39,313 bases of DNA, taken from UHGV virus genome UHGV-0159558; one strand, 5' to 3'. Position numbers and translations under genes: made by a program. The notes under the pieces are model-generated. The model saw nothing but the letters and a program-made list of their open reading frames with translations, did not search any database and was not told where the DNA came from. This DNA comes from a virus. Positions 1 through 39,313 of the stretch are shown here, piece after piece. Within the stretch, counting starts at the first letter, position 1. Each line of letters opens with the position of its first letter.

Positions 1-111
1 ATCTTCTTTGGGTGCTGGTTGTGACACCACAACACCTGTGCAACTGTACATTTTTTTGATTAAGTTGCACAAATCATTAAATGTTAAATCTTCTTTTTCT
101 CTTAGTGTCAT
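1..111 (-). CDS. hypothetical protein, N-terminal part only (gene continues past the left edge of the window)
   Basis: Minus-strand ATG at 111 with TAGGAGG 8 nt upstream; the frame stays open to position 1 (MTLREKEDLTFNDLCNLIKKMYSCTGVVVSQPAPKED...). Confidence 0.4.
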   Translation of the reverse strand, partial: MTLREKEDLTFNDLCNLIKKMYSCTGVVVSQPAPKED

Positions 112-122
112 CTTCGATCCTC

Positions 123-498: not shown

Positions 499-549
499 TT
501 TTAATTTCTTATTATTGCTCTCGATTTAATCAAGAGCAACCATAAAAAA

Positions 550-789: not shown

Positions 790-800
790 TTTAAATCCTC

Positions 801-1252: not shown

Positions 1253-1558
1253 ATGAGAACAGGAATTTTATTAAAAAAATTTTGTGATGAAAAAAACGTT
1301 AAACAAAAAGAATTAGCAGAAGTTGCGGAAGTATCAGAACCTTCGATTAGTAGAGCTATTTCAGGAATTATTTTTTTAAAAAAGAAAAATATGGAATCAA
1401 TAATAAAATATTTAAGACTTTCAAAAGATGAAGAGATGGAATTGTGGAAAGCGTGGACACTTGACAGAGGAGAGACCAAAGCGGCGGCGTACTTTGAAAA
1501 ATTGGACAAAGAAAATAAGAAATTAAAAAAAATATTATCAGCGATAAAAGAACTGTAA
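1253..1558 (+). CDS. XRE-family helix-turn-helix transcriptional regulator (repressor-like)
   Basis: HTH signature KQKELAEVAEVSEPSISRAISG. GGAG RBS 8 nt before ATG 1253 (the ORF track starts at GTG 1244). Confidence 0.6.
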   Translation: MRTGILLKKFCDEKNVKQKELAEVAEVSEPSISRAISGIIFLKKKNMESIIKYLRLSKDEEMELWKAWTLDRGETKAAAYFEKLDKENKKLKKILSAIKEL

Positions 1559-3284: not shown

Positions 3285-3348
3285 TAACGCCCAAGGGCTT
3301 TATTATATATATAATAATCTCTCCTAGGTTATTTATATTAATTTTTCA

Positions 3349-3594: not shown

Positions 3595-3652
3595 TAAAAA
3601 TAAAAACAGGTAATAAAAATGTTTTTTTGTACCTTGAAATTCTAAACATTTT

Positions 3653-3747
3653 CGGATTTTCAAGGGTCAAAAAAACAATAAAATTACAACGGATTTGAAA
3701 CAAATATTTTCAAGAGTCGTTATTTTTAAAGGATTTTCAAGATTTCC
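3653..3747. repeat. iteron-like direct repeats of ATTTTCAAG (3656, 3706, 3733), with an inverted copy at 3642-3650 and a related GGATTTGAAAC at 3691
   Basis: Seen directly: CGGATTTTCAAGGGTC, ATATTTTCAAGAGTCG and GGATTTTCAAGATTTCC within 100 bp. Confidence 0.5.
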
Positions 3748-3821
3748 AAAAAACGACACTTGTCAAGTAAATATATAAGGGTACAACATTACTTTCAAAA
3801 AGTCAATAGAATTTTATATAT

Positions 3822-3839
3822 AAATTACAACTGAATAGA
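3822..3839 (+). promoter_or_regulatory. 18-mer AAATTACAACTGAATAGA, repeated at 9902-9919, each directly 5' of an intrinsic terminator
   Basis: Exact 18-nt identity at two loci. Chance is unlikely, but base composition is skewed. Confidence 0.4.
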
Positions 3840-3849
3840 AATTAGCAGC

Positions 3850-3877
3850 ACAAGGAATTTATAAGCCTTGTTTTTTT
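3850..3877 (+). terminator. intrinsic terminator (ACAAGG-N10-CCTTGT + T7)
   Basis: 6-bp stem plus T-run. Confidence 0.5.
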
Positions 3878-3924
3878 ATAACAATTTTTCAGACAACTAA
3901 ATATAAAACTGTATTTCTTGTTAG

Positions 3925-3955
3925 TCACATAAATTAAAAACTTGTGTGACTGATT
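3925..3955. promoter_or_regulatory. inverted repeat AGTCACA-N15-TGTGACT upstream of the Rep_trans gene
   Basis: Seen directly; 7-bp arms. Confidence 0.3.
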
Positions 3956-4069
3956 GGAAACACACGTAAATGATAAAAACAAGGAGGGTTTAAAATCGTT
4001 GACAATGGCACATTTATATATACAAGTCGTGACATAGATATCACGCAGGCGGCAGCAAATGCGCAGGCA

Positions 4070-24350: not shown

Positions 24351-24368
24351 TTTCGAGAGCTCTCGAAA
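24351..24368. promoter_or_regulatory. perfect 18-bp palindrome TTTCGAGAGCTCTCGAAA (copy 1 of a dispersed motif; candidate parS or operator)
   Basis: Seen directly. A second perfect copy is at 33761-33778; near-copies are at 38438-38455, 38864-38877 and 37549-37570. Confidence 0.5.
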
Positions 24369-26102: not shown

Positions 26103-27494
26103 ATGTTAGAGTTTAAAAAAGAATATTTTCAAACAGAAACAAATAGACACCTATACCCTACAACTCTTGACCTCTCGAAAGCAGAAGTCTATGGGTGCAA
26201 GGATAGAGAAGCGTATATGTATAAGATACCTAATGATAGATATGCAAGCAATGCTGGTAATATAGACTTTTCTCTATATCCTAACGGGGTATGGAGTGAC
26301 TATACAGGGATAAAAATAGTTGAAAGATTACCGTTTTTTCAACCTAGTATCAATTTTAATAAGCTAGGAGATATAACACCTACTAACCTTAATAAACTTA
26401 AAGATGAAATTAAAAAACATATAGTTGATATTGAAACTGCTATTATGGAAAATTATATATTTATAGACACTAAAAATGCTGGACAAAACAATTTACCATA
26501 TTTACCAGATGATTGTGTATGGTTTAGAAATGGAATTACTGGAAATATAGAAGCACTGCCAGTGGGAGAACTATATGATAAATATAAAAGTATGATAGAT
26601 AAAGTCTATAACGATGTGTATAAATTATTATTAAAAGATAAAGAAGCTATGTCACAGGAACTTAAAGAACTGTTAGCCGAAGCTATGAAGCAATTAGAAA
26701 ATTTTAAAGTAGAAGCACAAGAACAGTTTAGAGAAGAATTAAAAAAAATAGAAAATAAAACCAAAATAGAGATAGAATCTTATGTCATAGATGATATAAA
26801 ACCTGGCATAAATTCTTTTGCAGAAGAAAAAAAAGAAGAACTCCAACAATTTATAGATGAAAACAAAGCTAATCTTAAAGGGAACAAGGGAGATAAAGGG
26901 GACAAAGGAGACCCAGGACCTAAAGGAGATTCTATAAAAGGAGATAAAGGAGATATAGGACCTCGTGGGGAAAAAGGGGATATAGGACCTGTTGGTCCTC
27001 GTGGTGAACCAGGACCTACTGGTCCTCGTGGAGAATTTGTAAAAGGAGATAAGGGTGAAAAGGGGGATACAGGAGATACAGGACCTCGTGGGGAAAAGGG
27101 AGACCCAGGACCTACTGGTCCTCGTGGGGATTCTATAAAAGGTGAAAAGGGGGATAAAGGTAATACAGGTCCTGCTGGAGAAAAAGGTGACACAGGAGCT
27201 AGTATAAGTAAAATTACAAGCACTGGAAGTACAGAAGCTGGAAACAATTATTCAGTGCAAACAGATAACGGAGTAATAATAGGAGCTTTCACAGCACCAA
27301 GAGGTCCTAAAGGGATTGATGGGGCTAAAGGTGAAAAGGGAGACAAAGGAGATACAGGAGCAATAGTTACAGCTCAAGGTCAATTCGCTTTTCATGTAGA
27401 TAATAAAGGACATCTTATTTTAACTCACGAAGAGGATACAGCACCTAATTTCTCATTAAGCGAAGACGGGCATTTAATCTACACAATAAATTAA
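26103..27494 (+). CDS. collagen-like tail fibre protein (Gly-X-Y repeats)
   Basis: Long G-X-Y runs (GDKGDKGDPGPKGD, GPRGEKGDIGPVGPRGEPGPTGPRGE). GC-rich codons produce a stop-free shadow ORF on the opposite strand. Confidence 0.65.
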   Translation: MLEFKKEYFQTETNRHLYPTTLDLSKAEVYGCKDREAYMYKIPNDRYASNAGNIDFSLYPNGVWSDYTGIKIVERLPFFQPSINFNKLGDITPTNLNKLKDEIKKHIVDIETAIMENYIFIDTKNAGQNNLPYLPDDCVWFRNGITGNIEALPVGELYDKYKSMIDKVYNDVYKLLLKDKEAMSQELKELLAEAMKQLENFKVEAQEQFREELKKIENKTKIEIESYVIDDIKPGINSFAEEKKEELQQFIDENKANLKGNKGDKGDKGDPGPKGDSIKGDKGDIGPRGEKGDIGPVGPRGEPGPTGPRGEFVKGDKGEKGDTGDTGPRGEKGDPGPTGPRGDSIKGEKGDKGNTGPAGEKGDTGASISKITSTGSTEAGNNYSVQTDNGVIIGAFTAPRGPKGIDGAKGEKGDKGDTGAIVTAQGQFAFHVDNKGHLILTHEEDTAPNFSLSEDGHLIYTIN

Positions 27495-27506
27495 AGGAGG
27501 TAACAA

Positions 27507-29843
27507 ATGGCAACAATAGATTTAGGACTTGTAAGAGGTAAAGATGGTCTTAATGTAAAAGAATTGAGATTAAAAGAATCAACAGACACTCAAAACGTAT
27601 ATGAGGTTGTTTTAAGTGATGATAGTGTAGCAGGGCAAGTTACAGTACCAGCAGGGAAACAAGGACCTCAAGGGATTCAAGGGGTTAAAGGTGAAACAGG
27701 AGCTCGTGGAGCTAATGGAGCTGATGGAGCTCAAGGGGTTGGAATTTCTAAAATTGCATTTAAAAATGAAAATCTTGATGGTAGCTTTATATACGCAGTT
27801 ACTCTTACAAATAATCAAACATATGAAATAACGTGTCCAATAGGTCCTAAAGGGGATAGAGGAGATACAGGTAGTGCTGGGGCTAAAGGTGAAGCAGGAG
27901 CTCAAGGGGTTGGAATTTCTAGGATAGCATACAAAAATACAAATCAGGATGGTAGTTATGTATATACAGTTTCTCTTACTAACGGAACATCACACGAAAT
28001 AACATGTCCAATAGGTCCTAAAGGTAGCACTGGTGGTGCTGGTCCACAAGGTCCTAAAGGGGACGCTGGAGTTCAGGGGGTTCAAGGGGTTGGAATTACT
28101 AATGTCAGATACAAACAAACGTCAAGTAATGGAAGCTATATCTATACAATAGTTTTATCAAATGGAAACACATATGATATTACATGTCCAATAGGTCCTA
28201 AAGGGGATAAAGGAGACGATGGAGATACTAGTAGTATAACTTTAACATGGAGTGCTATACAAAATAAACCAACAACATTCCCATCAACTTGGAGTGAAAT
28301 AACAGGAAAACCTAGTTCGTTCCCTCCATCAGCTCATAATCAAGATTGGGGCACAATAACTGGTATACCTGGCACATTTACACCATCGCCTCATAAACAT
28401 TCTAAAATAGATATAACAGATTTTCCAGAAATTCCAAAACCTATATCTGCACTTCCAATAGGAACTATAATTCCTTATGTAGGAGGTTCGATACCACTTG
28501 GATTTTTGCTATGTGATGGTAGAGAGATAAAACAATTTGATTATCCATTATTATATAATTTACTTCCAACAGGTTGGAGTATAAACGAAGCTGGATTTAG
28601 ACGTATGGCTAAAATGGAAATTCCAGCAATGCAAAGTGCAAGTCAAAATGGATTCACTGTAACAGAAAGTAGCAAATGGCAAGATTCGGAAGCAGGTTGG
28701 AAAATATTTAATAGAAAATATTTTGATTATTTTTCAACAGCCGATGGTAATGCTAGTGGTTATGTAGAAATAAGTTATCCTGAAAAAAGAGCAGTTAGCA
28801 AAATAATTTTTAAAGCTAGAGATAGAGAAGCTAATTCAAAATGGAAAAGAGTTGCTTTTTATGGTGATGATAAAAAACTTTGGGAAGAAAGTTTTGTTTC
28901 AACTTCTCCTCAAACTAATAAAGTTTTTGAAAGAGAACTACCTTTTAATGAGACTATTGAAGAATACAATAGGTTTAAAATAGAAATAGAAGGAGAAAAT
29001 ACAGAGGTTATTTCGCTTTCAGAACTAGAAATATATACTGTTAATCTAAAAGACATTCCTATATCATCAAATCTACAAACTAAAAAGTATCTTCCAGATT
29101 TAAGAGGTAAGTTTTTAAAAGGAAATACAAGTGATAGAAAATTACTAAGTTTCGAATATCAAGGCGTAGGCAAGCACAAACATAAAGAGATTCTTAATGG
29201 TTGGGAAAATATTGATTCTTTAAATGCTGAGTTTATAGACTTGAAACCTTTAGTTACTGGGTTGACGTCTGAGAAAGATGAAAACGTTGGTTATGGCGAT
29301 AATGCAACTGTGTTAAGAACAGGAGATGAACTGGCAACAGGTGATGAAAACGTTCCTAACAATATTTCTGTTAACTACATAATTAAAGCTTTAAATGTAG
29401 ATGATGAAGTACCTCCAAGTTCTGTTTTAACAGAGATTAATAATAAAATAGAAAACAATAAAACAGATATTGAAGAATTAAGAGAAAACATAAATGTTTT
29501 AGACGGCAATACAAACTATGAAACAGTAGAGTTATTCTCTTCGCAAGTTGCTATACCAGATAAAATCACTTTAAATGAAAGTATAAAGAATTTTAGACAA
29601 ATTGAAATTTGGACTTGTTTTAATGAAAGAAATTACAAAGTGTCGCATTTATTAAATACAGATACTATAACTTATAGTGATTCCGAAACAAGTGCAACTC
29701 AAAACTCTATGAATAGATATTTTTTTGAAACCTTTGGAAATAGATATACTTTTGCTATTTTCAAAACAAATGGTACAGATGTATTAGTAGCTAATTATGA
29801 AACTGCTTGTATAACTAAAATAATAGGAATTGGAAGAAAATAA
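27507..29843 (+). CDS. tail fibre or receptor-binding protein with collagen-like segments and a triplicated 57-aa module
   Basis: G-X-Y runs interleaved with three copies of GVGIS[KR]IA[FY]KN...G[ST][FY][IV]Y[AT]V[TS]LTN...[EH]ITCPIGPKG. Long beta-rich C-terminal domain. Confidence 0.6.
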   Translation: MATIDLGLVRGKDGLNVKELRLKESTDTQNVYEVVLSDDSVAGQVTVPAGKQGPQGIQGVKGETGARGANGADGAQGVGISKIAFKNENLDGSFIYAVTLTNNQTYEITCPIGPKGDRGDTGSAGAKGEAGAQGVGISRIAYKNTNQDGSYVYTVSLTNGTSHEITCPIGPKGSTGGAGPQGPKGDAGVQGVQGVGITNVRYKQTSSNGSYIYTIVLSNGNTYDITCPIGPKGDKGDDGDTSSITLTWSAIQNKPTTFPSTWSEITGKPSSFPPSAHNQDWGTITGIPGTFTPSPHKHSKIDITDFPEIPKPISALPIGTIIPYVGGSIPLGFLLCDGREIKQFDYPLLYNLLPTGWSINEAGFRRMAKMEIPAMQSASQNGFTVTESSKWQDSEAGWKIFNRKYFDYFSTADGNASGYVEISYPEKRAVSKIIFKARDREANSKWKRVAFYGDDKKLWEESFVSTSPQTNKVFERELPFNETIEEYNRFKIEIEGENTEVISLSELEIYTVNLKDIPISSNLQTKKYLPDLRGKFLKGNTSDRKLLSFEYQGVGKHKHKEILNGWENIDSLNAEFIDLKPLVTGLTSEKDENVGYGDNATVLRTGDELATGDENVPNNISVNYIIKALNVDDEVPPSSVLTEINNKIENNKTDIEELRENINVLDGNTNYETVELFSSQVAIPDKITLNESIKNFRQIEIWTCFNERNYKVSHLLNTDTITYSDSETSATQNSMNRYFFETFGNRYTFAIFKTNGTDVLVANYETACITKIIGIGRK
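27735..28205 (+). repeat. three tandem ~171-bp coding repeats inside the tail-fibre gene
   Basis: Repeat starts at nt 27735, 27906 and 28086, derived from the protein repeat positions. Confidence 0.55.
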
Positions 29844-31831: not shown

Positions 31832-32152
31832 ATGAAACTAGCTGATATAGAACTAGGAATACTTAAATATATAAAACAAGAGGTAGCCTCTAAAGCTACA
31901 GGGATTAAAAAGTTTTTGATATATTCAGGGGTAGCTTTAGGAGCTGAAAAAGGAGAAAGAATGCTACAAGAATATCTTCCAACACTTCAAAACATGGGTC
32001 TAGTATCACCTGATGGAGATATAGATATTGATTCTTTATACAATGCTATGAAGATAGGAATAAAAGAAAGTGGGGATTTTATTTTTGGTGGTTTTAAATT
32101 TAATGAACAAGATGTAGACAAGTTATTTCAGTACATAAGAGGAGGAATGTAA
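31832..32152 (+). CDS. hypothetical protein (106 aa)
   Basis: AAGGAGG RBS. Confidence 0.4.
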   Translation: MKLADIELGILKYIKQEVASKATGIKKFLIYSGVALGAEKGERMLQEYLPTLQNMGLVSPDGDIDIDSLYNAMKIGIKESGDFIFGGFKFNEQDVDKLFQYIRGGM

Positions 32153-32153
32153 A

Positions 32154-32480
32154 ATGAAACACAAATTAAAAAGGCTTATATGGACAATAGAAGACCATAT
32201 AAAAGACAGTGGATATGATTTGAAAAACGCTAAAAGAGAAAAAGAAGAACAAGACACAGACATGGAAAACTTTTATATTCAATCTGCTAAGCAACGTCTT
32301 GATTGGGCAAATAAGGGCTTGGACAGATACGGTAATATAATAAGAGACTATGAGGCTAGAGAACGTCAAAATGGACATGATAGAGCCGTCATAGAAGAAA
32401 AAGCAATGGCATGGCGTTGCGTATATGAGATATTAGAAGAAAGAGTAAAACATTTAACCAAAGAAATCTCAGAGATGTAA
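32154..32480 (+). CDS. hypothetical protein (108 aa)
   Basis: AGGAGG RBS. Coupled to the upstream gene. Confidence 0.4.
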   Translation: MKHKLKRLIWTIEDHIKDSGYDLKNAKREKEEQDTDMENFYIQSAKQRLDWANKGLDRYGNIIRDYEARERQNGHDRAVIEEKAMAWRCVYEILEERVKHLTKEISEM

Positions 32481-32483
32481 AAC

Positions 32484-32509
32484 AAAAAGGGGCTTAATTG
32501 CCCCTTTTT
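32484..32509. terminator. bidirectional terminator (A5-GGGGC-TTAATT-GCCCC-T5) between convergent genes
   Basis: GC stem flanked by an A-run and a T-run. Confidence 0.7.
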
Positions 32510-32525
32510 CGCTCTACGTAAGCTT

Positions 32526-33197
32526 TTAAAGCTTCTTTACTAGGTCCGCCATCTCTTCTCTTAGTAGTTTTATAGCCGTTTCATGCTTGTAGATCTCATC
32601 ATTAATTTCCATTATCCTGTCTTGGATACTCTTTTCACTTTTAACATTTATCGTTTTGCTGGCGTCGGCAACTACCATTTTGTTGGCATCGGTAAAATGG
32701 TTACGAGCCTCTTTAATTCCTTTACCTGTTCTTACTTCTCCATCTAATACTTTAAACACTAATGCTGGAGGTGTAGCTTTATTAATAACCTCTTTTACCT
32801 CTACATCAGAAAGGGATTGTACCCTATCTTTATAGCTTGGATTCTCCAGATACAACCTATATCTACCCCTTAGTAAATACACTTGGTCCTTGTTGTACCC
32901 AAGCGTTGTGTACCACTCTGTAAAAGTTTCCTCAAGGTTATTTTTAGCAAATATCTCCCTTGCTTTTTCCAAAGTTCCCCCTAATGTTAGGGCAATTTCT
33001 CCAATTCTTTTTCTTTGATATAGAAGTTCTTTCTCATAAGTTATCAAAGAGTTCTTATCATCCGTATCTATCACGAGCCTATTATAGTCAAAATAAAGCT
33101 CCTCGGCTATTACTTGACTTATTGTATTACTTTCTTGTGAAAGGGCAGGAACGACCCTTTCACGACGTCTAAGAGCTTTGTTAAATTTACTTGCCAT
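32526..33197 (-). CDS. partition partner protein (ParB-like centromere-binding protein candidate)
   Basis: Immediately downstream of parA and overlapping it by 11 nt. Basic N-terminal tail MASKFNKALRRRERV. GGGAGA RBS. No canonical ParB GERRxRA motif recognised. Confidence 0.4.
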   Translation of the reverse strand: MASKFNKALRRRERVVPALSQESNTISQVIAEELYFDYNRLVIDTDDKNSLITYEKELLYQRKRIGEIALTLGGTLEKAREIFAKNNLEETFTEWYTTLGYNKDQVYLLRGRYRLYLENPSYKDRVQSLSDVEVKEVINKATPPALVFKVLDGEVRTGKGIKEARNHFTDANKMVVADASKTINVKSEKSIQDRIMEINDEIYKHETAIKLLREEMADLVKKL

Positions 33198-33921
33198 ATC
33201 TCAATATCTCCCTTGTTAAATTTTCAAAGTCAGTTGCACCATTTGACCTTGGTGAGTATTCAAATATAAACTGACCGCACATCTCCGCTTCTTTAAGTTT
33301 TATATTCTCTCTTATAAAACTTACTAACATATCATCACGATAATCAATCAAGAGCTCCCCAATACCCTCTAAAAACTTTTTGTCGTTGGGTACACGACTA
33401 AGATACCCTTTATGTATTAGATTAGGTTTTAGAGTACTTTTATGGCTTCCTATAAAAGACTCTAAAATATCGAATCCATCTAAGCTAAACGAGTGAGGCT
33501 CTATTGGTGTTAAAACTATATCACTTGCATTAATTGCATTAGTCTCAGGCTTTTTCATATCAGGACGGCAGTCAATAATCACAAAATCATAGTCGTTAAT
33601 CACTAAAAGCTGCTCTTTAATCACAAAATCAGATGTGATACTAACTTTTAAATCATCATCTAGGTTTCTCATTCTTAGATCTCCGGGTATCAAATCTAGG
33701 TTATCTGTTATCTTGACTATATTCCCTTTAAAATCCCTCTTCATAATAGCGTCATAAATATTTCGAGAGCTCTCGAAATTTAATGATGTACTAAGGTTTC
33801 TTTGAAAGTCTAAGTCTATAAGTAAAACCTTTTTATCTCTTTGTAACATTCCAGCTACTTCTCTAGCTCCTGTTGTCTTTCCTGTTCCACCCTTTTCAAC
33901 CATAAAACTAATTATTTTCAT
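33187..33921 (-). CDS. parA: ParA/Soj-family partition ATPase
   Basis: Deviant Walker A: VEKGGTGKTT. Also LLIDLDFQRNLS and VIIDCRPD motifs. GGGGG RBS. Confidence 0.8.
   Translation of the reverse strand: MKIISFMVEKGGTGKTTGAREVAGMLQRDKKVLLIDLDFQRNLSTSLNFESSRNIYDAIMKRDFKGNIVKITDNLDLIPGDLRMRNLDDDLKVSITSDFVIKEQLLVINDYDFVIIDCRPDMKKPETNAINASDIVLTPIEPHSFSLDGFDILESFIGSHKSTLKPNLIHKGYLSRVPNDKKFLEGIGELLIDYRDDMLVSFIRENIKLKEAEMCGQFIFEYSPRSNGATDFENLTREILRYGK
33760..33779. promoter_or_regulatory. 20-bp palindrome ATTTCGAGAGCTCTCGAAAT inside parA (copy 2 of the dispersed motif)
   Basis: Seen directly. Identical 18-bp core to 24351-24368. Confidence 0.5.
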
Positions 33922-34435
33922 TTTCTACCCCCTGTATTAAAGTAAGTATATTAAGAAATTGTTTTTCAAAATGCTCTACAATCTCTTTTCTCTCTTTATC
34001 ATCAAAGCAAATATCAGGTATTTTACTAAGTTTTTCACTAGCTTTATAATACCAGTCTAAGTACTCTTTATAATACTTGCTGGCGTTTTCAAGCTTTAAC
34101 TCCTCTTGAATTTCAACATCTCTTTTTTGGAGTTTGTATATTAATTCTTGTCCACACTCAGGCAAAATATATTTTATCGGTTCTTCTCTTTTTTCTTGCA
34201 TAAGAAACCAATATTTATTTTTAAATTTTTCCATTAATCTTTCTTTTTCGTGAGGTTCAAAATATATATCTGGAATTGCTTTTAATTTTTTTAAAGCATA
34301 ATGATACCAGTCAAGCTGTTTTTCTAACTCTACATTGTCTTTTAATCTTGTTCCTGATAATTTCTCATGCTCTTCTTTTAGTAATTCCAATCTTTTTTTG
34401 TAGTTTATTTTCATTACTCCACCCCTTTTAAACAA
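33908..34435 (-). CDS. hypothetical protein with an internal tandem duplication (175 aa)
   Basis: Two ~40-aa repeats: QLDWYHYALKKLKAIPDIYFEPHEKERLMEKFKNKYW and YLDWYYKASEKLSKIPDICFDDKERKEIVEHFEKQF. GGGGTGGAG RBS. Confidence 0.45.
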   Translation of the reverse strand: MFKRGGVMKINYKKRLELLKEEHEKLSGTRLKDNVELEKQLDWYHYALKKLKAIPDIYFEPHEKERLMEKFKNKYWFLMQEKREEPIKYILPECGQELIYKLQKRDVEIQEELKLENASKYYKEYLDWYYKASEKLSKIPDICFDDKERKEIVEHFEKQFLNILTLIQGVENENN

Positions 34436-35331
34436 GCTCTTATAAAATTAATATACATAGTTTTATTATTTCTTTTCATAGTTTCAATAAAGCCTTTATC
34501 CATTCCATCAGATATTAATTTTTCAAGTCCTTTTTCTTCTTCCTCTGGTGTAAGGTCTTCAGGTTCTACAATTTTTATATCTTCAATTTCTTCTTTCTTT
34601 ACTTCTTTTTTAGGCTTTTTCTTTGGCTCTTCTTTTATTATTTCAGGTTCTTTTATATCCCAATGTAATATGACTTTATCAACTTCTTTTCCTGCTCTTT
34701 TTCTCTCCAGTTCTAAGTTTATTATATTAGTTTTTTCAAATTCTTTTTTAGTCACCCCTATAACCTTAGCTTCGACATCTGCCCATCTATATGATTCAGG
34801 AACATTTAATAAGTGCCTGAAAAACTCTCCTGAATATTCTTTCTTTTTTAGCCCTTTATAGCTCATCACAATTTGATATATTTTTTTAGCATATTTACCC
34901 TTTAGACTTGCAAATTCTAAAAGCTCATGTTGGGTAAAATTTCCAGTAAGATTAAAAAACAAATGAATATATTTCTTTTTAAGAACAAAAATAATCTTTT
35001 TATTATCTTTGCTGAAACATAGCTTATCAAATATATGTTCACAAACATTATACTCATCTTCCTCAAAGTAAATTTTAGTATCATAAATTTTCTCTAGTGA
35101 TTCTGTTAATCTCTTCATAGAAACATTACCTTGAAGTAATTTTTTTATAGCTTGTGAGGATAATTCTAATTCTAAATCTTTATCTACTGCCACATTCATG
35201 TGGTCGGTAACTTTTTTTCTTGCTGAGTAAGCTAAAGTTAATACTAAATCCATTTCATAAGCTGAATAATTATTCATAGAAGTAGCAAAATCTTTACTAT
35301 ACTCTACTATTGCATTTGATTCTTTTTCCAT
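34414..35331 (-). CDS. Rep_3-family theta-replication initiator (RepB-like)
   Basis: NNYSAYEMDLVLTLAYSARKK matches the Rep_3 N-terminal signature (N.L..A.Y.LSL.E.RL.L.L). The true start is ATG 35331 with a GGGG RBS. Iterons lie 270 bp upstream. Lys/Glu-rich C-terminus. Confidence 0.6.
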   Translation of the reverse strand: MEKESNAIVEYSKDFATSMNNYSAYEMDLVLTLAYSARKKVTDHMNVAVDKDLELELSSQAIKKLLQGNVSMKRLTESLEKIYDTKIYFEEDEYNVCEHIFDKLCFSKDNKKIIFVLKKKYIHLFFNLTGNFTQHELLEFASLKGKYAKKIYQIVMSYKGLKKKEYSGEFFRHLLNVPESYRWADVEAKVIGVTKKEFEKTNIINLELERKRAGKEVDKVILHWDIKEPEIIKEEPKKKPKKEVKKEEIEDIKIVEPEDLTPEEEEKGLEKLISDGMDKGFIETMKRNNKTMYINFIRACLKGVE

Positions 35332-35363
35332 TCTAACCCCTTTCTTTAAAATTGTAATCATAG

Positions 35364-35389
35364 TGTGAAAAAAATAATAAATTTTCACG
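35364..35389. promoter_or_regulatory. inverted repeat GTGAAAA-N12-TTTTCAC in the rep promoter region (autoregulation operator candidate)
   Basis: Seen directly. Related TTTTCACAC(TT) partial iterons are at 35447 and 35561. Confidence 0.35.
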
Positions 35390-35602
35390 CTTAATTAAAT
35401 ATACAATATTTTTTAAATAAAATCTACCCAAAAATTAGGTTTTTTTCACACTTTAAAGTACGACATTTTGTAACAAATGTTGGAATATAAATTTTAATTA
35501 TAAATAAGTAATAACCACATTTTATATTCAATGAGTGAAAAAAGCAACAATTTTTCACATTACATTATAAACATCTTTAATACTTTAGAAGTAAAAACAG
35601 TT

Positions 35603-35728
35603 CTGACAAAACGTCACACTTTGCTGACAAAACTTCACACTTCACTGACAAAACTTCACACTTCACTGACAAAACTTCACACTTTGCTGACAAAACGTCA
35701 CGGAAAACTGACAAAACTTCACTTTTAT
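35603..35728. repeat. iteron array: six contiguous 21-bp direct repeats (consensus CTGACAAAACTTCACACTTCA); origin of theta replication
   Basis: Units start at 35603, 35624, 35645, 35666, 35687 and 35708. The central copies are perfect; the outer ones degenerate. Head-to-tail with no spacers, so not a CRISPR array. Confidence 0.8.
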
Positions 35729-35894
35729 GTCGCTAAAGTCCTTGATTTTAGGGAAGTCTTGAGCCTCTTAAACTATATAAACTTATAAACTTATAAATAG
35801 GTAAAATTTTTTCACTTTATTTTTTAAATAATGTGACAAAATGGTACCCTATCACTTGAACTTCCCATCAAAATTTAATTTTTACATATTAAGT

Positions 35895-36026
35895 TTGACA
35901 CAATTTAATATGTATGGTATTATTAAAGTAGCTTTAAAGCCGTTTTATCCTCACAAGATAAAACAAACCCAAAAACCAAACTGTAATCAGAAAGCCTATC
36001 ACCCAATAGGCTTTCTTCTTTTTTTG
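35895..36026 (+). ncRNA. candidate small RNA: TTGACA-17-TATTAT promoter, ~95-nt transcript with two hairpins ending in an intrinsic terminator
   Basis: -35 at 35895-35900 and -10 at 35918-35923. Hairpin GTTTTATC-CTCACAA-GATAAAAC (35943-35965). Terminator GAAAGCCTAT-CACCCA-ATAGGCTTTC + T-run (35990-36026). No coding ORF with an RBS. Confidence 0.4.
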
Positions 36027-36042
36027 CTCTGCGTAAGTTTTA

Positions 36043-36065
36043 AAAAATTTGAAACTTCTAGGTAA
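36043..36065 (+). promoter_or_regulatory. second copy of the promoter-like 24-mer (AAAAATTTGAAACTTCTAGGTAAT)
   Basis: 23 of 24 positions identical to 24366-24391. Confidence 0.4.
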
Positions 36066-36220
36066 TTGTTATACTATTAATTAGAACCTGATTTTTTTAA
36101 TTTAATTTATTCATTACTACTACTTTGATTTTTAAACCCCTAATAAGATATTATCTGTATCTATAAAAATCATTAGGAGGTTAAAAGTAGTAAAAAGTTT
36201 TTAACCGTTATTTACAAAAC

Positions 36221-36269
36221 AAACCCCCACGCTTTTCCGTATTCCTTTAGTGTGGGGGTTTTGTTATTT
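36221..36269. terminator. hairpin AAACCCCCAC-N21-GTGGGGGTTT with T-rich flanks (terminator for minus-strand gene 36268-36822 and/or plus-strand transcripts)
   Basis: 10-bp perfect stem. T-rich on both sides. Confidence 0.5.
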
Positions 36270-36822
36270 ATGGTAACATCTTTTCTCTATCTTTCCAAAA
36301 TCCGACCCTATGTTTTTTAAAAGTAAACTTCAAAACAGCGTTTGTATGCTCTTCACGAGTAAGATTTTTAAATTTAACATCATCTACATAAACACTAAGT
36401 TTACTCATTTCATCATCAGAATATAGATGGTCTATTATTTCTAAAGATCTGTACCAACCTTTTTTTACTTTCATTCTTCCAGCAGTTCTGACCTCACAAG
36501 AAAATTCAGGACCATCAACACGAAACTTTCTACTACTTCCAACGTCGGACCAACCAATGGTTATTTCTGTGTTAGCTTGAATGTCTTTTATCTTATCTTC
36601 AAGCATTATTCTTGCTAGTTTTTCCTTATCCATAAAATCAGTAAGTTTAATTTTAGGGTATTTGTAAAGTCTTTTTCTCCATCCACCTCTTGGACTTTGG
36701 ATTGTTCTTTCTCTAGTGGTATAAAAATATTCTATTGCTCTTTGTCCATCTGTTACTTCATTTTCAGGGCTAATCCCTGCAAAATCTAAAAATAATAAAA
36801 AATCTTCTAATCTTTCAGCCAT
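36268..36822 (-). CDS. hypothetical protein (184 aa)
   Basis: AGGAGG RBS (TAAGGAGGAAGAAAATG). Confidence 0.45.
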   Translation of the reverse strand: MAERLEDFLLFLDFAGISPENEVTDGQRAIEYFYTTRERTIQSPRGGWRKRLYKYPKIKLTDFMDKEKLARIMLEDKIKDIQANTEITIGWSDVGSSRKFRVDGPEFSCEVRTAGRMKVKKGWYRSLEIIDHLYSDDEMSKLSVYVDDVKFKNLTREEHTNAVLKFTFKKHRVGFWKDREKMLP

Positions 36823-36905
36823 TTTCTTCCTCCTTATTCCTGAAGCAAGTGCCCCAGGAACTTATTTATTATATTTTAAATCATACTTTTACTGTTTTCA
36901 ATAAA

Positions 36906-37526
36906 TTAACTTACTTTTTTACTATTCCATAATATTTGTCTAAGATTTTTAAGTTCTGACATAGTTGCAGTATCAGGGTCAATTTCTGTATCTTTACAAG
37001 CTTTTAATATCTCTTCATTTGAATGTTTAGACTTTAAAACATCAATAAATATTTTTCTGTCTTTAGGTGTAGGCATATCATCAGCTTTTAATTTATCTTC
37101 TGCCTCTTTCATTAGTTGCTCTGGTGATTTGAATTGTTCTAAATCTTCACCAGTGTATAGGCTTAGACCTATACCGAAAAGGGCTATATTTTTAACTAGA
37201 CAACGCATTATACTATCACTTATTTGTCTAGTGTTAGGCTCTGCGACTGCATTGTGGCGGTTATCCATTACAGGAAGAAACATTTTTTTAGTTTCTCCGA
37301 ACATTGTTACTGTAGTTTTTACCATGTGACAAGTTCCACGACTAAATAATGGGAATCCGTCGGCGTCTTCCAATACTTCAAATGTAAAGTTTGGGTCTTG
37401 CTCCATAGCTAACTTGTAGGCGTTAGCCCAGCTTATATAATTTAACCCTTTATAATCCTTTTCCACTTTACCGCTAAGGTCTAGCATATACATGCTATCA
37501 AACATTTCTTTTTTCATATTTTCCAC
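36906..37526 (-). CDS. single-strand annealing protein (Erf/Rad52-like recombinase)
   Basis: LNYISWANAYKLAMEQDPNFTFEV and the QISDSIMRCLVKNIALFGIGLSLY segment resemble the Erf/Rad52-type SSAP core (...SYA.K..L..LFGIG). GAGGTGG RBS. Confidence 0.45.
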   Translation of the reverse strand: MENMKKEMFDSMYMLDLSGKVEKDYKGLNYISWANAYKLAMEQDPNFTFEVLEDADGFPLFSRGTCHMVKTTVTMFGETKKMFLPVMDNRHNAVAEPNTRQISDSIMRCLVKNIALFGIGLSLYTGEDLEQFKSPEQLMKEAEDKLKADDMPTPKDRKIFIDVLKSKHSNEEILKACKDTEIDPDTATMSELKNLRQILWNSKKVS

Positions 37527-37548
37527 CTCTTTTTTTAGTTTTTATATC

Positions 37549-37570
37549 AGCTCTCGAAAGGTCAAGAGCT
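37549..37570. promoter_or_regulatory. imperfect palindrome AGCTCTCGAAAGGTCAAGAGCT carrying a half-site of the dispersed TTTCGAGAGCTCTCGAAA motif
   Basis: Seen directly. Confidence 0.3.
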
Positions 37571-37580
37571 ATTATCAAAA

Positions 37581-37742
37581 CTAAAAATATCTTTTATGTA
37601 CTATTGGTTCATCTCCGAATAGGTCATCGGTGTAACTTTTCTTTTTACTACTCTTTGAGAATGTGAAGTAATCAAAAACGCAAAGTTTCCATTTTGTTTT
37701 TGTAGTGTGTTTTTCTTTTCTTGGTCTGTTAAATGCTTTCAT
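37581..37742 (-). CDS. small basic protein (53 aa)
   Basis: GGGGG RBS (TTAAGGGGGTAAATTATG). Sequence is MKAFNRPRKEKHTTKTKWKLCVFDYFTFSKSSKKKSYTDDLFGDEPIVHKRYF. Confidence 0.4.
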   Translation of the reverse strand: MKAFNRPRKEKHTTKTKWKLCVFDYFTFSKSSKKKSYTDDLFGDEPIVHKRYF

Positions 37743-37753
37743 AATTTACCCCC

Positions 37754-38020
37754 TTAAAACAAAACATTTTTTGATTCTTTTAAAAAATGTTCGCAATCTT
37801 TAAAAAAATAACTCAATTCATCAGTAAATACAGTTATCCCTTTTATGTAAAATATAGTGTTATTATCTATATAACAAGTTTCAAATTTTACATTCTTGGC
37901 AACATCTAAAACGGTTAAGGCTTCATACACAATAATCATTTTTAAAGCGTCATCTGTAAATTCAAGTTTTTTGTCTTGTTGTAATAAATAATATTTGTCA
38001 TTCTCTCTTATAATCTTCAT
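37754..38020 (-). CDS. hypothetical protein (88 aa)
   Basis: GGAGGT RBS. Confidence 0.45.
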   Translation of the reverse strand: MKIIRENDKYYLLQQDKKLEFTDDALKMIIVYEALTVLDVAKNVKFETCYIDNNTIFYIKGITVFTDELSYFFKDCEHFLKESKNVLF

Positions 38021-38081
38021 TTCTCTACCTCCATTTTAATTTTTATAGTGGGGCTGGAAGTGTCCAGCCCTGCTATCAAAA

Positions 38082-38273
38082 CTAAAAACCTTGGAAGTTT
38101 AAAAGCTTTTCTACTTTGAAAAATACTTCAAATTTATCATCTTTTTTTAAACTGAAACTGTGTTTTATTTCTCCGCTCTTGTTAGTATAAATTGACATTT
38201 CAAAATCTTTTATCTTGTTATCTCTTTTTAAAATTTCTAACTTCTCCAATGCTTTTATTAATTCTTTTTCCAT
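38082..38273 (-). CDS. hypothetical protein (63 aa)
   Basis: AGGAGGTGG RBS. Confidence 0.45.
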   Translation of the reverse strand: MEKELIKALEKLEILKRDNKIKDFEMSIYTNKSGEIKHSFSLKKDDKFEVFFKVEKLLNFQGF

Positions 38274-38340
38274 GTTCCACCTCCTATGTGTCTATAAAAT
38301 TTAATCTTCAATCCTAATACTCTTTTAAACCATGCCACAT

Positions 38341-38628
38341 CTACCAACTCCCAATCCCTGCGGCGTGTCTATCCCTTCTGTAAGTATCTTCTAAATCTTT
38401 GGAATAATTAACACCCTCGTCAATATCATCTTGCAAATTTTCGAGAACTCTCGAAATTGCTTTTTCGAGCGTCTCGGCTCTGTAACTTCTTACAGGTGTA
38501 TCAATTTCTATTTTTCCATCTTTGGTGATCTCTATTGTTACATGATCATCGCAAACAACAGTATCGAAATTGTTTTCTTTTAATATTTCTTGGATTTTTC
38601 CTAATCCTTTTAACATTTTATCTAACAT
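38341..38628 (-). CDS. hypothetical protein (95 aa)
   Basis: GGAGGGG RBS. Confidence 0.45.
   Translation of the reverse strand: MLDKMLKGLGKIQEILKENNFDTVVCDDHVTIEITKDGKIEIDTPVRSYRAETLEKAISRVLENLQDDIDEGVNYSKDLEDTYRRDRHAAGIGSW
38438..38455. promoter_or_regulatory. near-perfect copy (TTTCGAGAACTCTCGAAA) of the dispersed 18-bp palindrome, inside gene 38341-38628
   Basis: 17 of 18 positions match the perfect copies. Confidence 0.4.
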
Positions 38629-38831
38629 CCTAACCCCTCCAATTCTTTATTTAATGCCTCAAGGTCGTTGATAGCTTCTAAAAGAATATCCTCTAGGCTA
38701 TCCCCTGTATATTCCCAGTCGGAAAAGTTTATACAAACATCTCCATTGTAAGAATATACATTAATCCTTTCAGCTACTCCGCAACTACTTGCAAGAGTTA
38801 AAGCTTTTTTTAATAAATCATCTATTTTCAT
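38622..38831 (-). CDS. hypothetical protein (69 aa; internal start of ORF-track entry 38622-38939)
   Basis: GGGGGA RBS precedes ATG 38831. The longer ORF would overlap the next gene. Confidence 0.4.
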   Translation of the reverse strand: MKIDDLLKKALTLASSCGVAERINVYSYNGDVCINFSDWEYTGDSLEDILLEAINDLEALNKELEGLGC

Positions 38832-38863
38832 ATAGATTCCCCCTTTTAATTTTTTGTGGAAGC

Positions 38864-38877
38864 TCTCGAACGTTCGA
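38864..38877. promoter_or_regulatory. 14-bp palindrome CTCGAACGTTCGAG, related to the dispersed motif (GAGCTCTCGAA half-site)
   Basis: Seen directly. Confidence 0.35.
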
Positions 38878-38893
38878 GGGCAACCATAAAAAA

Positions 38894-39040
38894 TTAAGCT
38901 CTGAACCATTTGAATTGATATAATTTTGAATATGTCCAATCTTCCAAGCTCTCTATTTTGTCACCTGCTTTTTTAAATCCAAGGTAGTATAAAGAATCTT
39001 CTACCACCCAAAATATTTTTAAAATTATTTTTCTTAACAT
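38894..39040 (-). CDS. small hypothetical protein (48 aa)
   Basis: GGGGG RBS (AAAGGGGGTCAAATATG). Start overlaps the upstream stop (ATGTTAA). Confidence 0.35.
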   Translation of the reverse strand: MLRKIILKIFWVVEDSLYYLGFKKAGDKIESLEDWTYSKLYQFKWFRA

Positions 39041-39159
39041 ATTTGACCCCCTTTAAATTTTTTTACCATTTCCCAGATATCATTGACGGTTGTTGTTGCT
39101 GGGTCAATCCCAAGTTCTGCCATTCTTTTTGTGATTATTATTAGTTCTGTTAATCTCAT
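39034..39159 (-). CDS. small hypothetical protein (41 aa)
   Basis: GGGGG RBS (AAAGGGGGCTAATTATG). Sequence is MRLTELIIITKRMAELGIDPATTTVNDIWEMVKKFKGGQIC. Confidence 0.35.
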   Translation of the reverse strand: MRLTELIIITKRMAELGIDPATTTVNDIWEMVKKFKGGQIC

Positions 39160-39172
39160 AATTAGCCCCCTT

Positions 39173-39313
39173 TTATAAAATCCCTGCTTTTTTTAGAACT
39201 TTATAATCTTTTTGAAGTTCTGAATAACAATTTTCTATACATCTAAGTAAGTCAGGGTGTGTATAACCTATCATTTTTCTTGTTCCGTCAGGGTATTTAA
39301 GTTCTACCCTGTA
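39173..39313 (-). CDS. hypothetical protein, C-terminal part (gene starts beyond the right edge of the window)
   Basis: Open minus-strand frame to the window edge, ending ...YRVELKYPDGTRKMIGYTHPDLLRCIENCYSELQKDYKVLKKAGIL with TAA at 39173-39175. Confidence 0.35.
   Translation of the reverse strand, partial: YRVELKYPDGTRKMIGYTHPDLLRCIENCYSELQKDYKVLKKAGIL

Follow-up and report, generated by a model that had tools for sequence, protein, structure and literature searches.

A probable phage-plasmid: a Rep_3 iteron replicon and ParA-type partition genes in a circular podovirus-like genome

In the virus genome UHGV-0159558, analysed here over its whole length of 39,313 nucleotides (the window), minus-strand genes suggestive of plasmid maintenance lie beside genes for virion assembly, packaging and lysis, raising the question of how such an element would persist in its host. 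The original prediction was of a phage-plasmid, and our analysis supports this reading through HMM matches, a closed circle, the lack of any recombinase family and comparative evidence. All the elements it named were recovered at their given positions or close by. We consider it likely, judging from sequence, that this is a complete circular temperate podovirus-like phage that would persist as a low-copy plasmid without integration, in a host probably belonging to the Fusobacteriaceae.

Two independent metagenome contigs, an ENA contig (L001; 39,368 bp, 100% identical) and an 8.5-kb contig from a separate sample (L003; 99.8% identity), run uninterrupted across the junction between positions 39313 and 1, so that the window is a closed circle of exactly 39,313 bp, as anticipated for a circular element of about 40 kb. 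Because these contigs pass through the junction and an 83-aa gene bridges it, the small minus-strand genes at 1-1022 are a continuation of the same block, as had been suspected. A circular assembly is equally expected from a linear virion genome with terminal redundancy or circular permutation. In a Pfam scan of the 59 ORFs, no integrase, resolvase, transposase or protelomerase family was detected at E<=0.001, in line with the earlier claim that the window has no integrase; since the window closes on itself, nothing lies beyond its ends that could supply an integrase or an att site. Phage polymerase, helicase and primase families were likewise not detected among the genome's ORFs, and neither a multimer-resolution system nor a toxin-antitoxin pair was found in the genome.

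The predicted Rep_3-type initiator was confirmed by matches to both Pfam domains, Rep3_N (9e-15; 55.7 bits, cut-off 22.4) and Rep3_C (2e-8; 34.9 bits, cut-off 21.1), and its gene most likely starts at the ATG at 35331, which is preceded by an AAAGGGG ribosome-binding site, and not at the GTG at 35388. The six 21-bp iterons that had been noted lie ahead of the gene (Table 1), and their 14-nt core TGACAAAACTTCAC, with up to two mismatches allowed, is confined to these six sites in the whole 39-kb genome, forming the putative Rep-binding core of a plasmid origin. An inverted half-iteron lies over the rep promoter, where it is a probable operator for Rep autorepression, and an equivalent palindrome occurs immediately upstream of rep in one relative (L011). 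A second palindrome of the same form lies inside a 144-bp segment (35458-35601) that is missing from relatives L011-L013. On the opposite side of the iterons from rep, in a region that aligns with relatives, an A+T-rich stretch is a candidate DNA-unwinding element; no convincing DnaA box was found.

Table 1. Features of the window discussed in the text.
Feature	Position	Strand	Evidence or context
83-aa gene	111..1 + 39313..39173	-	bridges window junction
HTH_3 (Cro/CI-type) regulator	1253..1558	+	Pfam HTH_3 1.9e-5; divergent from minus-strand early operon
Rep_trans-like protein, 332 aa	4079..5077	+	similar to rolling-circle proteins pT181 RepC/RepD
18-bp palindrome, copy 2	24351..24368		gap between genes for 1630-aa internal virion protein and large terminase
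G+C-rich hairpin, perfect palindrome	32484..32509		terminator scan; between convergent late (+) and par (-) genes
ParA partner, 223 aa	32526..33197	-	11-nt overlap with end of parA
ParA ATPase, 244 aa	33187..33921	-	Pfam AAA_31 8e-36, CbiA 5e-10, MipZ
18-bp perfect palindrome TTTCGAGAGCTCTCGAAA, copy 1	33761..33778		inside parA
orf168, 168-aa coiled-coil protein	33908..34414	-	ORF/gene calls; between rep and parA
Rep_3 initiator, 305 aa, WH1 + WH2 domains	34414..35331	-	Pfam Rep3_N and Rep3_C over cut-offs
Palindrome GTGAAAA-N10-TTTTCAC (inverted half-iteron)	35365..35388		over rep promoter
Second GTGAAAA-N10-TTTTCAC palindrome	35535..35558		inside 144-bp segment
Six direct 21-bp iterons, unit CTGACAAAACTTCACACTTCA	35603..35728		TRF period 21, 5.7 copies, score 163
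A+T-rich stretch	35729..35835		TAAACTTA x3.5; 40-nt windows of 90% A+T
Candidate small RNA, ~98 nt	35895..36026	+	near-consensus promoter TTGACA-17-TATTAT with TG, two hairpins, terminator
Hairpin + T-run	36221..36261	-	inverted repeat I17; after last early gene
Sak-type (Rad52-like) single-strand annealing protein	36906..37517	-	Pfam SSAP_Sak 3e-31; PHROG 659, 8492
18-bp palindrome, copy 3 (TTTCGAGAACTCTCGAAA)	38439..38456		within 95-aa early gene

Downstream of the iterons the genes follow in the order rep, orf168, parA and partner. The product of orf168, which has an apparent internal duplication and no Pfam or PHROG match, is translationally coupled to rep and parA; the gene is present in the close clade and missing from L008, L017 and L019. 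Hairpins at either end delimit this region: one is the probable terminator closing the rep-par operon, and the other would probably insulate the origin and the rep-par operon from the early operon. Between the iterons and the latter hairpin lies a candidate small RNA (fold z-score -6.6; no Rfam match) that is 95.7-100% identical in relatives, including those in which the iterons and Rep have been replaced. The annealing protein, originally described as Erf/Rad52-like and as part of the plasmid-maintenance block, proved to be Rad52-like (SSAP_Sak), and the Erf family gave no match. It belongs to an early recombination module and not to plasmid maintenance, being separated from rep-par by a terminator, and it is swapped for YqaJ and RecT in L008 and L017.

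The ATPase matches PHROG 164, 'ParA-like partition protein' (5e-50), and together with its Pfam match and the gene overlap this bears out the proposed pair of ParA and an overlapping partner. A deviant Walker A motif, KGGTGKT, is legible in its sequence, and no N-terminal HTH domain was detected, making it a ParA of the small type. The partner begins with a basic peptide, continues into a helical core predicted to bind DNA and ends in a coiled coil; it lacks the ParB N-terminal (CTPase) domain. Its fold resembles the DNA-binding domains of KorB, ParB and SopB, that of KorB being the best match; at the level of sequence, the PDB gave no match to either KorB or ParB. Remote sequence similarity was detected to UPF0137, which we take to be the Chlamydia pGP6-D family; on the Chlamydia plasmid, Pgp5 is the expected ParA and Pgp6 the expected ParB (PMC11895440). 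We regard the partner as a putative ParB-like centromere-binding adaptor. A homologous ParA-partner pair is borne by p6, a circular 48-kb plasmid of a cultured Cetobacterium somerae strain, and the same cassette is present in an unrelated myovirus-type element and therefore acts as a portable module.

The best candidate for a centromere (parS) or operator is an 18-bp palindrome that is conserved in L008 and L011-L015. The window contains three exact copies of it, where 0.23 would be expected even with <=3 mismatches allowed. Its core TCGAGAGCTCTCGA is found with the ParA-partner pair here, in L008 and on plasmid p6, where it lies in the gene for the partner homolog. These candidate sites are dispersed and partly intragenic, whereas in most small-ParA systems the sites are clustered.

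The virion, packaging and lysis genes expected beside the block are present. With its T7-type portal (Head-tail_con 2e-35) the virion module is podovirus-like, and the recognised late genes further include those for capsid, tail proteins, internal virion proteins, large terminase and collagen-like fibres, along with an endolysin (Phage_lysozyme 3e-45). One short HTH_3 match marks a candidate prophage repressor, and a 15-bp inverted repeat is visible in the sequence between it and the divergent early operon (1023-1243). The largest non-structural protein without an assignment resembles a replication nickase (Rep_trans-like) and not a recombinase; this candidate second initiator suggests separate plasmid and lytic origins.

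The layout SSAP, iterons, Rep_3, ParA and partner recurs at about ten related loci, including L008 (a contig of NCBI genome assembly GCA_964316895.1), L011-L015 and L017, and Rep_3-ParA-partner with iterons forms a conserved cassette in a family of phage genomes of 36-40 kb, on which most of the 39 Rep homologs are found. None of the contigs tallied by length for the proteins looked up in this family is longer than 50 kb. In close relatives, all of them metagenome contigs, Rep is 50-62% identical where identity reaches 91-100% for ParA, the partner, the lysin and other proteins. Arrays of 5-9 repeats occupy the same place, and Rep variants differ in iteron sequence, L015 and L014 having repeats of their own. 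Rep and its iterons are the hypervariable part of a near-identical backbone, as expected if plasmid incompatibility matters. No DNA similarity was found to any record in phage and plasmid reference collections, and tblastn of Rep and the partner against phages gave no match. By portal, the nearest cultured relative is the integrase-bearing Fusobacterium phage FNU4 (22.7% identity), and distant homologs point to a host that probably belongs to the Fusobacteriaceae.

Combining these features, we chart a model for the element. Its own plasmid origin and partition system and the lack of an integrase indicate that it most likely persists as a low-copy plasmid. Rep_3 monomers would bind the six iterons, open the adjoining A+T-rich stretch and recruit the host replisome for theta replication, while Rep dimers on the inverted half-iteron would repress the rep promoter, and 'handcuffing' of iterons would limit copy number and cause incompatibility. 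ParA, with its ParB-like helix-turn-helix partner on the 18-bp palindromes, would segregate the copies at cell division, and the HTH_3 repressor would silence early and late genes. Upon induction, the Rep_trans-like second initiator may launch rolling-circle replication that feeds packaging.

A different account would make this a virulent phage, or one carried only transiently, with Rep_3 and its iterons as the sole lytic origin and no heritable plasmid prophage; ParA and its partner would then serve to place or shield phage DNA during its replication, or would act against the host. With no phage polymerase or helicase detected, Rep_3 could be the main initiator, some of the metagenomic relatives are listed as viral contigs, and any terminally redundant phage genome assembles as a circle. 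Phages regarded as virulent can also carry partition genes, for example the SPO1-like 'BigBertha' community (PMC7969092). We nevertheless judge this account, including the role it gives to ParA, to be unlikely: the ParA-partner pair and palindrome are shared with a real plasmid, strong diversification of Rep and iterons in a conserved backbone is hard to explain without incompatibility of co-resident replicons, and a terminator-insulated rep-par operon with an autorepression-type operator follows low-copy logic. Also against it are the Cro/CI-type regulators in divergent arrangement, the variable accessory genes of relatives at fixed hot spots, and the availability of a second candidate initiator for lytic replication.

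Less probable still is an integrating prophage that either has an integrase diverged beyond recognition or borrows host Xer recombinases, the circular contigs being excised or virion forms. Very divergent recombinases can escape profile searches, several proteins of 170-240 aa have no family assignment, and FNU4 has an integrase; yet the closed genome has no recombinase family at E<=0.001, contigs above 50 kb are absent from the tallies for the window's ParA and for P0007, P0008, P0015, P0017 and P0034, the 20-kb stretches around Rep homologs hold phage genes only, and an iteron replicon with a partition system would be superfluous for an integrating phage. We give equally little credence to a plasmid bearing the remnant of a defective phage or a particle cluster of the gene-transfer-agent kind. 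Neither a small terminase nor a holin was identified among the genome's genes, and many structural matches are weak (1.5e-7 for the capsid, 2e-4 in Pfam for the large terminase), but the late region is whole and colinear and, outside the tail-fibre region, most of it is 86-97% identical in nucleotide sequence between samples. Long open reading frames are maintained (one of 1630 aa), an endolysin gene is present, and tail-fibre genes are exchanged between relatives, as in actively infecting phages.

The preferred reading, a low-copy phage-plasmid, places the window beside P1, N15, SSU5 and the groups of Pfeifer et al. 2021 (PMC7969092), which likewise combine a temperate genome with a plasmid replicase and partition genes and lack an integrase. 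That survey found few podoviral phage-plasmids, and Fusobacteria are absent from its main text (PMC7969092). As in phage-plasmids in general, phage genes are conserved and plasmid genes variable; the window differs in having no DNA similarity to reference records and a podovirus-like virion. The earlier label 'P1/N15-like' holds for lifestyle, as a supported reading, and fails for homology, none being detected to P1 or N15.

P1 has an iteron-controlled low-copy origin (oriR/RepA) whose initiator is autoregulated, partition genes of the ParA type (ParA-ParB-parS) and a separate lytic replicon (oriL), and the window appears to mirror all three, in Rep_3 with iterons, ParA with its partner, and the Rep_trans-like candidate. 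However, P1 is a 94-kb myovirus whose ParA is large, with an N-terminal DNA-binding domain, whose ParB is canonical and which has Cre/lox dimer resolution, whereas the podovirus-like window of 39.3 kb has a small ParA, a partner without the ParB N-terminal domain and no detected resolvase. N15 and the other linear plasmid prophages would share with the window the extrachromosomal prophage state, along with SopAB/ParAB-type partition, and their dispersed centromere sites have a counterpart in the scattered candidate sites here; in contrast to N15, with its primase-helicase RepA, the window has a Rep_3 initiator and no detected protelomerase family.

In some Cluster A mycobacteriophages parABS replaces the integration cassette (PMC7969092), so that relatives bear either integrase or partition genes, as do FNU4 and the window's family, respectively; a recent swap relative to FNU4 is not established because portal identity is only 22.7%. 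The window differs in carrying a plasmid-type initiator with iterons. To our knowledge, Cluster A parABS phages have no such dedicated initiator and iterons.

With Rep_3 iteron plasmids (pPS10, R6K, F RepE, Acinetobacter) the window shares a WH1+WH2 initiator, tandem 21-22-bp iterons beside the gene and a promoter overlaid by an inverted half-iteron; it differs in that its Rep is <30% identical to any plasmid Rep in PLSDB, no clear DnaA box is present and the replicon forms part of a phage genome. The pairing of a small ParA with an HTH partner recalls IncC-KorB of IncP (RK2) and Pgp5-Pgp6 of Chlamydia, the best fold match being the KorB DNA-binding domain and the remote similarity that to UPF0137/pGP6-D, although the putative DNA-binding partner differs from KorB/ParB in its missing N-terminal domain and in sequence. 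KorB operators are dispersed around their replicon, as are the palindromic sites of the window. The type of element, a phage-plasmid, is already known; the family is new.

A look-up of the exact ParA protein led to two informative contigs, L001 (ENA, 39,368 bp) and the independent L003 (8.5 kb, from another sample), which cross the 39313/1 junction of the window without a break at 100% and 99.8% identity, respectively. An 83-aa minus-strand gene straddles this junction and the neighbourhood across it is kept in more distant relatives, and the 55 bp by which L001 is longer would be consistent with a k-mer overlap between the two ends of an assembled circle. The genome (39,313 bp, ~31% G+C) is thus closed, as the original prediction had suspected in proposing a circular element of about 40 kb whose minus-strand genes at 1-1022 continue the plasmid-maintenance block, and nothing lies "just outside" the window. 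Scanning all 59 plausible ORFs against Pfam revealed no integrase, resolvase, transposase or protelomerase family at E≤0.001, in line with the predicted lack of a recognisable integrase. The same scan matched Head-tail_con (T7-type portal, 2e-35), T7_gp14, Phage_lysozyme (3e-45), collagen repeats, dUTPase_2 and two HTH_3 regulators, in addition to the ParA, Rep_3 and Sak families. The virion, packaging and lysis genes that had been anticipated are likewise present, since the late region matches PHROG and Pfam families for capsid, tail and internal virion proteins (one 1630 aa long) as well as for an endolysin, fibres and the large terminase. These scans showed neither a tape measure nor a sheath family, so the virion is probably podovirus-like; neither a small terminase nor a holin was identified in them, and searches of the entire window yielded no Rfam family and no tRNA.

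The late module varies most among relatives at 26103-29843 (+), where two tail-fibre genes carry long stretches of collagen-like Gly-X-Y repeats and a tandem duplication of 171 bp (27726-28082). In the pooled scan, crAss001_48 (1.5e-19) was matched by one of the 59 ORFs, which is not among the twenty proteins given a Pfam scan of their own. The candidate repressor gene is immediately followed by the gene for a 237-aa protein (1571-2284, +) with an apparent N-terminal membrane segment, judged by eye, and a weak PADLOC match to LeoBC (2.7e-7); the prophage may express it for superinfection exclusion or defence. At 2500-2838 (+), a 58-aa ORF stops at a TGA (2674-2676), beyond which the frame is open for 53 further codons with no ATG, GTG or TTG start; the downstream peptide, KISVPLQWLQDLGV, appears AbrB-like to our eye. 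Both the arrangement and the peptide are conserved in three relatives (L005, L011 and L012), and the second part of the frame aligns in L013 with a 66-aa gene called on its own, making stop-codon readthrough or a non-canonical start possible.

Both Pfam domains of the Rep_3 initiator exceed their curated cut-offs (Rep3_N (WH1), 55.7 bits vs 22.4; Rep3_C (WH2), 34.9 bits vs 21.1), and its start can be placed at 35331 from gene calls on identical contigs and an AAAGGGG ribosome-binding site. The non-coding region upstream of rep spans 880 bp and contains six 21-bp direct repeats, the iterons, whose 14-nt core has no further occurrence in the genome, even with up to two mismatches allowed. ParA carries a deviant Walker A motif (KGGTGKT) read in the sequence, and the gene of its 223-aa partner shares 11 nt with the end of parA. 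All of these elements had been named in the original prediction, namely a Rep_3-type initiator with six 21-bp iterons and a ParA ATPase with an overlapping gene, and each was recovered by the domain searches or located in the sequence. Its "Erf/Rad52-like" annealing protein kept the Rad52-like half of the label through a match to Pfam SSAP_Sak only, and lost the other, as Pfam Erf gave no match.

Coordinates of the features discussed (window positions, except where a relative is named)
Feature	Position	Strand	Evidence or remark
Plus-strand block	~1244 to 32480	+	
Minus-strand block	32526 to window end, continuing at 1-1022	-	
332-aa protein	4079-5077	+	candidate second initiator
Non-coding region upstream of 332-aa gene	3285-4069		785 bp
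18-bp palindrome, copy	24351		next to terminase gene
18-bp palindrome, copy	33761		inside parA
18-bp palindrome, copy	38439		inside early gene
Operon-closing hairpin, G+C-rich	32509-32484		shared with convergent late genes
Partner	32526-33197	-	
ParA ATPase	33187-33921	-	Pfam AAA_31 8e-36; PHROG 164 "ParA-like partition protein" 5e-50
orf168	33908-34414	-	
Rep_3 initiator	ORF 34414-35388	-	Rep3_N 9e-15, Rep3_C 2e-8
Second GTGAAAA-N10-TTTTCAC palindrome	35388-35365		over rep promoter region
144-bp segment	35601-35458		between iterons and rep promoter; carries GTGAAAA-N10-TTTTCAC palindrome
Iterons, six of 21 bp	35603-35728		
A+T-rich stretch	35835-35729		far side of iterons from rep; contains TAAACTTA repeats
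Conserved non-coding segment	near-consensus promoter 35895-35923; terminator 35989-36016	opposite	
Candidate small RNA	35895-36026	+	predicted transcript 35929-36026
Probable early-operon terminator	36261-36221	-	hairpin and T-run after last early gene
Sak-type annealing protein	36906-37526	-	Pfam SSAP_Sak 3e-31
Accessory segments	L012 12816-14114; L014 12934-13659; L015 12903-13151; L017 12276-12910		
Further accessory segments	L012 3445-3933; L014 2989-3537; L015 3856-4362		

The genes rep, orf168, parA and partner follow one another in this order, each stop codon overlapping or adjoining the next start codon, and the terminators on both sides make the rep-par region a self-contained transcription unit. 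The ori-rep-par cassette (~3.8 kb, 32484-36261) is a candidate backbone for a stable low-copy vector. Of the two GTGAAAA-N10-TTTTCAC palindromes, the one over the rep promoter region has an equivalent at the same position upstream of rep in the relative L011, and the GTGAA with which the iteron ends recurs in the GTGAAAA arms. In the classical Rep_3 plasmids pPS10, F and R6K, Rep dimers repress their own gene through such an inverted arrangement, and the palindrome at the rep promoter, an apparent inverted partial iteron, is a candidate autorepression site of this type. A+T-rich stretches flank the iterons on both sides. The one at 35460-35530 was rejected as the unwinding element because it lies inside the 144-bp segment, in place of which L011-L013 have ~17 nt, leaving the conserved A+T-rich stretch across the iterons as the better candidate. 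No convincing DnaA box was found in the origin region, where all matches carried one mismatch and three of six fell on the half-iteron motif TTTTTCACA.

Two further elements of this region were observed. On the strand opposite to rep, a candidate small RNA of ~98 nt with two hairpins (fold z-score -6.6) extends from a near-consensus promoter to an intrinsic terminator; relatives share this segment at 95.7-100% identity, even where the adjacent iterons and Rep are replaced, no Rfam family matches it, and its variation is too low for a covariation test. The 168-aa coiled-coil ORF orf168, for which no family was found, shows an apparent internal duplication (two copies of WY..A..KL..IPDI.F) and is kept in the close clade and missing from L008, L017 and L019.

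The partner matched no Pfam family, and its profile retrieved coiled-coil noise only in a PDB sequence search; neither search detected the canonical N-terminal domain of ParB (ParB/Srx, CTP-binding), so any likeness to ParB would be confined to the DNA-binding fold. In its AlphaFold model (mean pLDDT 79, from an alignment of 25 homologs), a helical core (residues 45-177) is preceded by a basic, disordered N-terminus and followed by a coiled coil at the C-terminus. Fold-match scores were moderate and of a size also obtained for unrelated helical proteins, and we therefore place the weight on the recurrence of ParB-type domains among the matches, from which the partner is predicted to be a DNA-binding adaptor encoded directly downstream of parA. 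An exhaustive profile search returned 243 cluster representatives, and 18% (11/60) of distant family members matched Pfam UPF0137, which we take to be the family of Chlamydia plasmid pGP6-D. The ParA and ParB of the Chlamydia plasmid are expected to be Pgp5 and Pgp6, respectively (PMC11895440). The partner is moreover 46% identical (E 5e-49) to a gene that overlaps the end of the ParA gene on p6, a 48-kb circular plasmid of a cultured Cetobacterium somerae strain that encodes RepB, MobA/L and toxin-antitoxin genes and has no annotated phage genes. The prediction would provide a testable function for a UPF0137/pGP6-D-linked protein family so far without an assigned one.

The putative site of the partner has the sequence form TTTCGAGAGCTCTCGAAA. 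Among palindromes whose arms measure 7 nt or more, a single one is repeated in the window, an 18-bp element, TTTCGAGA(G/A)CTCTCGAAA, present in three exact copies, compared with 0.23 matches expected even when up to three mismatches are allowed. L011-L015 also have the copies in parA and the early gene, and the terminase-adjacent copy was seen in L014; L008 (67% DNA identity) has two copies, in parA and the partner gene. Its 14-nt core, TCGAGAGCTCTCGA, occurs once on p6, within the partner homolog, and the palindrome is lacking in myovirus-type elements whose partner is 40% identical. As it is tied to the ParA-partner pair across the phage family and a plasmid, this palindrome is the best candidate for a centromere or operator.

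Homologs of Rep (n=39, 36-92% identity) reside on contigs of which the longest cluster at 36-40 kb, and the ~20-kb stretches around them contained phage genes only and no recombinase family. The contig-length tallies for the window ParA and five family proteins (P0007, P0008, P0015, P0017 and P0034) included no contigs above 50 kb; P0007, one Rep variant, was indexed in 46 blocks of the collection, with 0 above 50 kb, and the family seems common in metagenomes. All of the approximately 10 loci fetched (L008, L011-L015, L017 and some shorter) share one order, in which small early genes are followed by an annealing protein (Sak, or YqaJ and RecT), a 0.6-0.95 kb gap with 5-9 repeats of 21-22 bp, Rep_3, an optional orf168, ParA, the partner, sometimes 1-2 accessory genes, and convergent lysis and late genes. 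Comparing the window with L011, L012, L014 and L015, we found that ParA (95-98%), the partner (91-99%) and lysin, orf108, orf173 and the 332-aa protein (95-100%) are nearly identical, with Rep merely 50-62% identical. L015 and L014 have repeat sequences of their own, ACTACGACACAATGTAAC and TACTTACAAAAAGGGGG respectively, that differ from those of the window, but L011-13, L008 and L017 keep a GTGAAGTTTTGTCA-like iteron core, in L011-13 and L008 despite Rep identities of 62% and 45%, such that iterons and Rep correspond only partially. With this partial match, divergence of Rep and iterons within a conserved backbone would be the product expected from selection for compatibility of co-resident plasmids, and the family offers a clean natural system in which to examine whether phage diversification is shaped by plasmid incompatibility.

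Accessory genes vary among the relatives at two fixed hot spots, one directly downstream of the partner gene and the other within the large non-coding region that precedes the 332-aa gene. A lipoprotein is encoded by one of these genes, and Pfam and PADLOC assigned them no confident function or defence family.

The Rep_3-ParA-partner cassette also occurs in distinct elements of 43-49 kb with myovirus genes (Baseplate_J, sheath initiator), and its presence in both podovirus-like and myovirus-type elements indicates a portable module. Four loci of this size (L019-L022) combine the cassette with a second initiator, RepA_N, and carry a resolvase and a tyrosine recombinase beside Gp10_C tail-fibre segments that are rearranged, suggesting that the host-range region may be invertible.

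The 332-aa protein is conserved in all relatives and falls into a PHROG of unknown function. Its model (pLDDT 89.5, pTM 0.86) placed 4cwc and 4cwe at the top of the Foldseek ranking (E 5e-3, with low TM-scores), and hhalign aligned invariant motifs of the family, YFKIYSKRKE and LRGELTLKG, with FIRIYNKKQE and LWRVEIELKR of pT181 RepC (E 0.005); of these two RepC motifs, the first contains the catalytic tyrosine of RepC. The protein had no match to Pfam Rep_trans (PF02486), 10% (3/30) of its homologs matched Phage_CRI weakly (E 0.06), and its profile retrieved coiled-coil noise only in a PDB sequence search. On balance we favour a Rep_trans-like rolling-circle initiator of the pT181 RepC/RepD type, and it may serve as a separate initiator of lytic replication. 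A hidden integrase, which was also considered for this protein, was set aside as the fold search points to a rolling-circle initiator instead. If the assignment is right, the upstream non-coding region, with several hairpins and ATTTTCAAG repeats, would be the natural place for the nick site, and the genome would contain both a plasmid and a lytic origin, as does P1 with oriR and oriL.

Several hints, all of them indirect, indicate that the host probably belongs to the Fusobacteriaceae. A Cetobacterium MAG fragment bears a Rep homolog, p6 encodes a partner homolog, and a partner homolog of the myovirus-type family is labelled Fusobacterium mortiferum. By portal, the nearest cultured phage is Fusobacterium phage FNU4 (22.7% identity), which carries an integrase, and plasmids of Fusobacterium varium and Leptotrichia are among the best plasmid matches of Rep, at <30% identity. 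A Rep alignment scan of GTDB species genomes returned only a Cetobacterium MAG contig of 1.6 kb and a doubtful match in Runella, so isolate genomes gave neither a host nor an integrated copy.

By a working definition, a phage-plasmid combines phage core functions with a plasmid replicase and partition genes and needs no integrase (PMC7969092). The window encodes structure, packaging and lysis genes together with plasmid replication and partition genes, in a complete replicon with neither chromosomal flanks nor an integrase, and we consider it likely that the element is a phage-plasmid, its plasmid state being predicted from gene content and comparative patterns. The chief rival is a phage, virulent or in a carrier state, whose lytic replication relies on Rep_3, and some phages regarded as virulent indeed have partition genes as well (PMC7969092); set against it is the ParA-partner pair, homologous to that of p6. 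Building on the phage-plasmid reading, we tentatively propose a fuller picture that, taken jointly, is rather unlikely to hold in every part: an undescribed podovirus-like phage-plasmid family, probably of gut Fusobacteriaceae, with a Rep_3/iteron theta plasmid origin exchanged or diversified into incompatibility groups, a divergent Rep_trans-like rolling-circle nickase for lytic replication, a KorB-like, UPF0137/pGP6-D-related adaptor on dispersed 18-bp palindromes that is maybe a global regulator, and a conserved origin small RNA.

Phage-plasmids are an established class, and the original prediction had described the lifestyle of this one as P1/N15-like. The phage-plasmid part of that description agrees with the gene content, but the element is a member of neither group: the window has no homology to P1 genes, its portal is of the T7 type and its virion type differs, and it has no homology to N15 and no protelomerase family (Pfam, E≤0.001). 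Megablast of 32000-39313 against phage and plasmid collections gave no match, nor did tblastn searches of phages with Rep or with the partner; in IMG/VR, the Rep scan found nothing and the portal scan two close relatives only. We found no description of this family in the literature on Fusobacterium phage-plasmids, and a 2021 survey lists few phage-plasmids of podoviral type, with Fusobacteria not mentioned in its main text (PMC7969092). If true, the family would extend the phage-plasmid class known from P1 and N15 to the Fusobacteriaceae, a medically relevant group.
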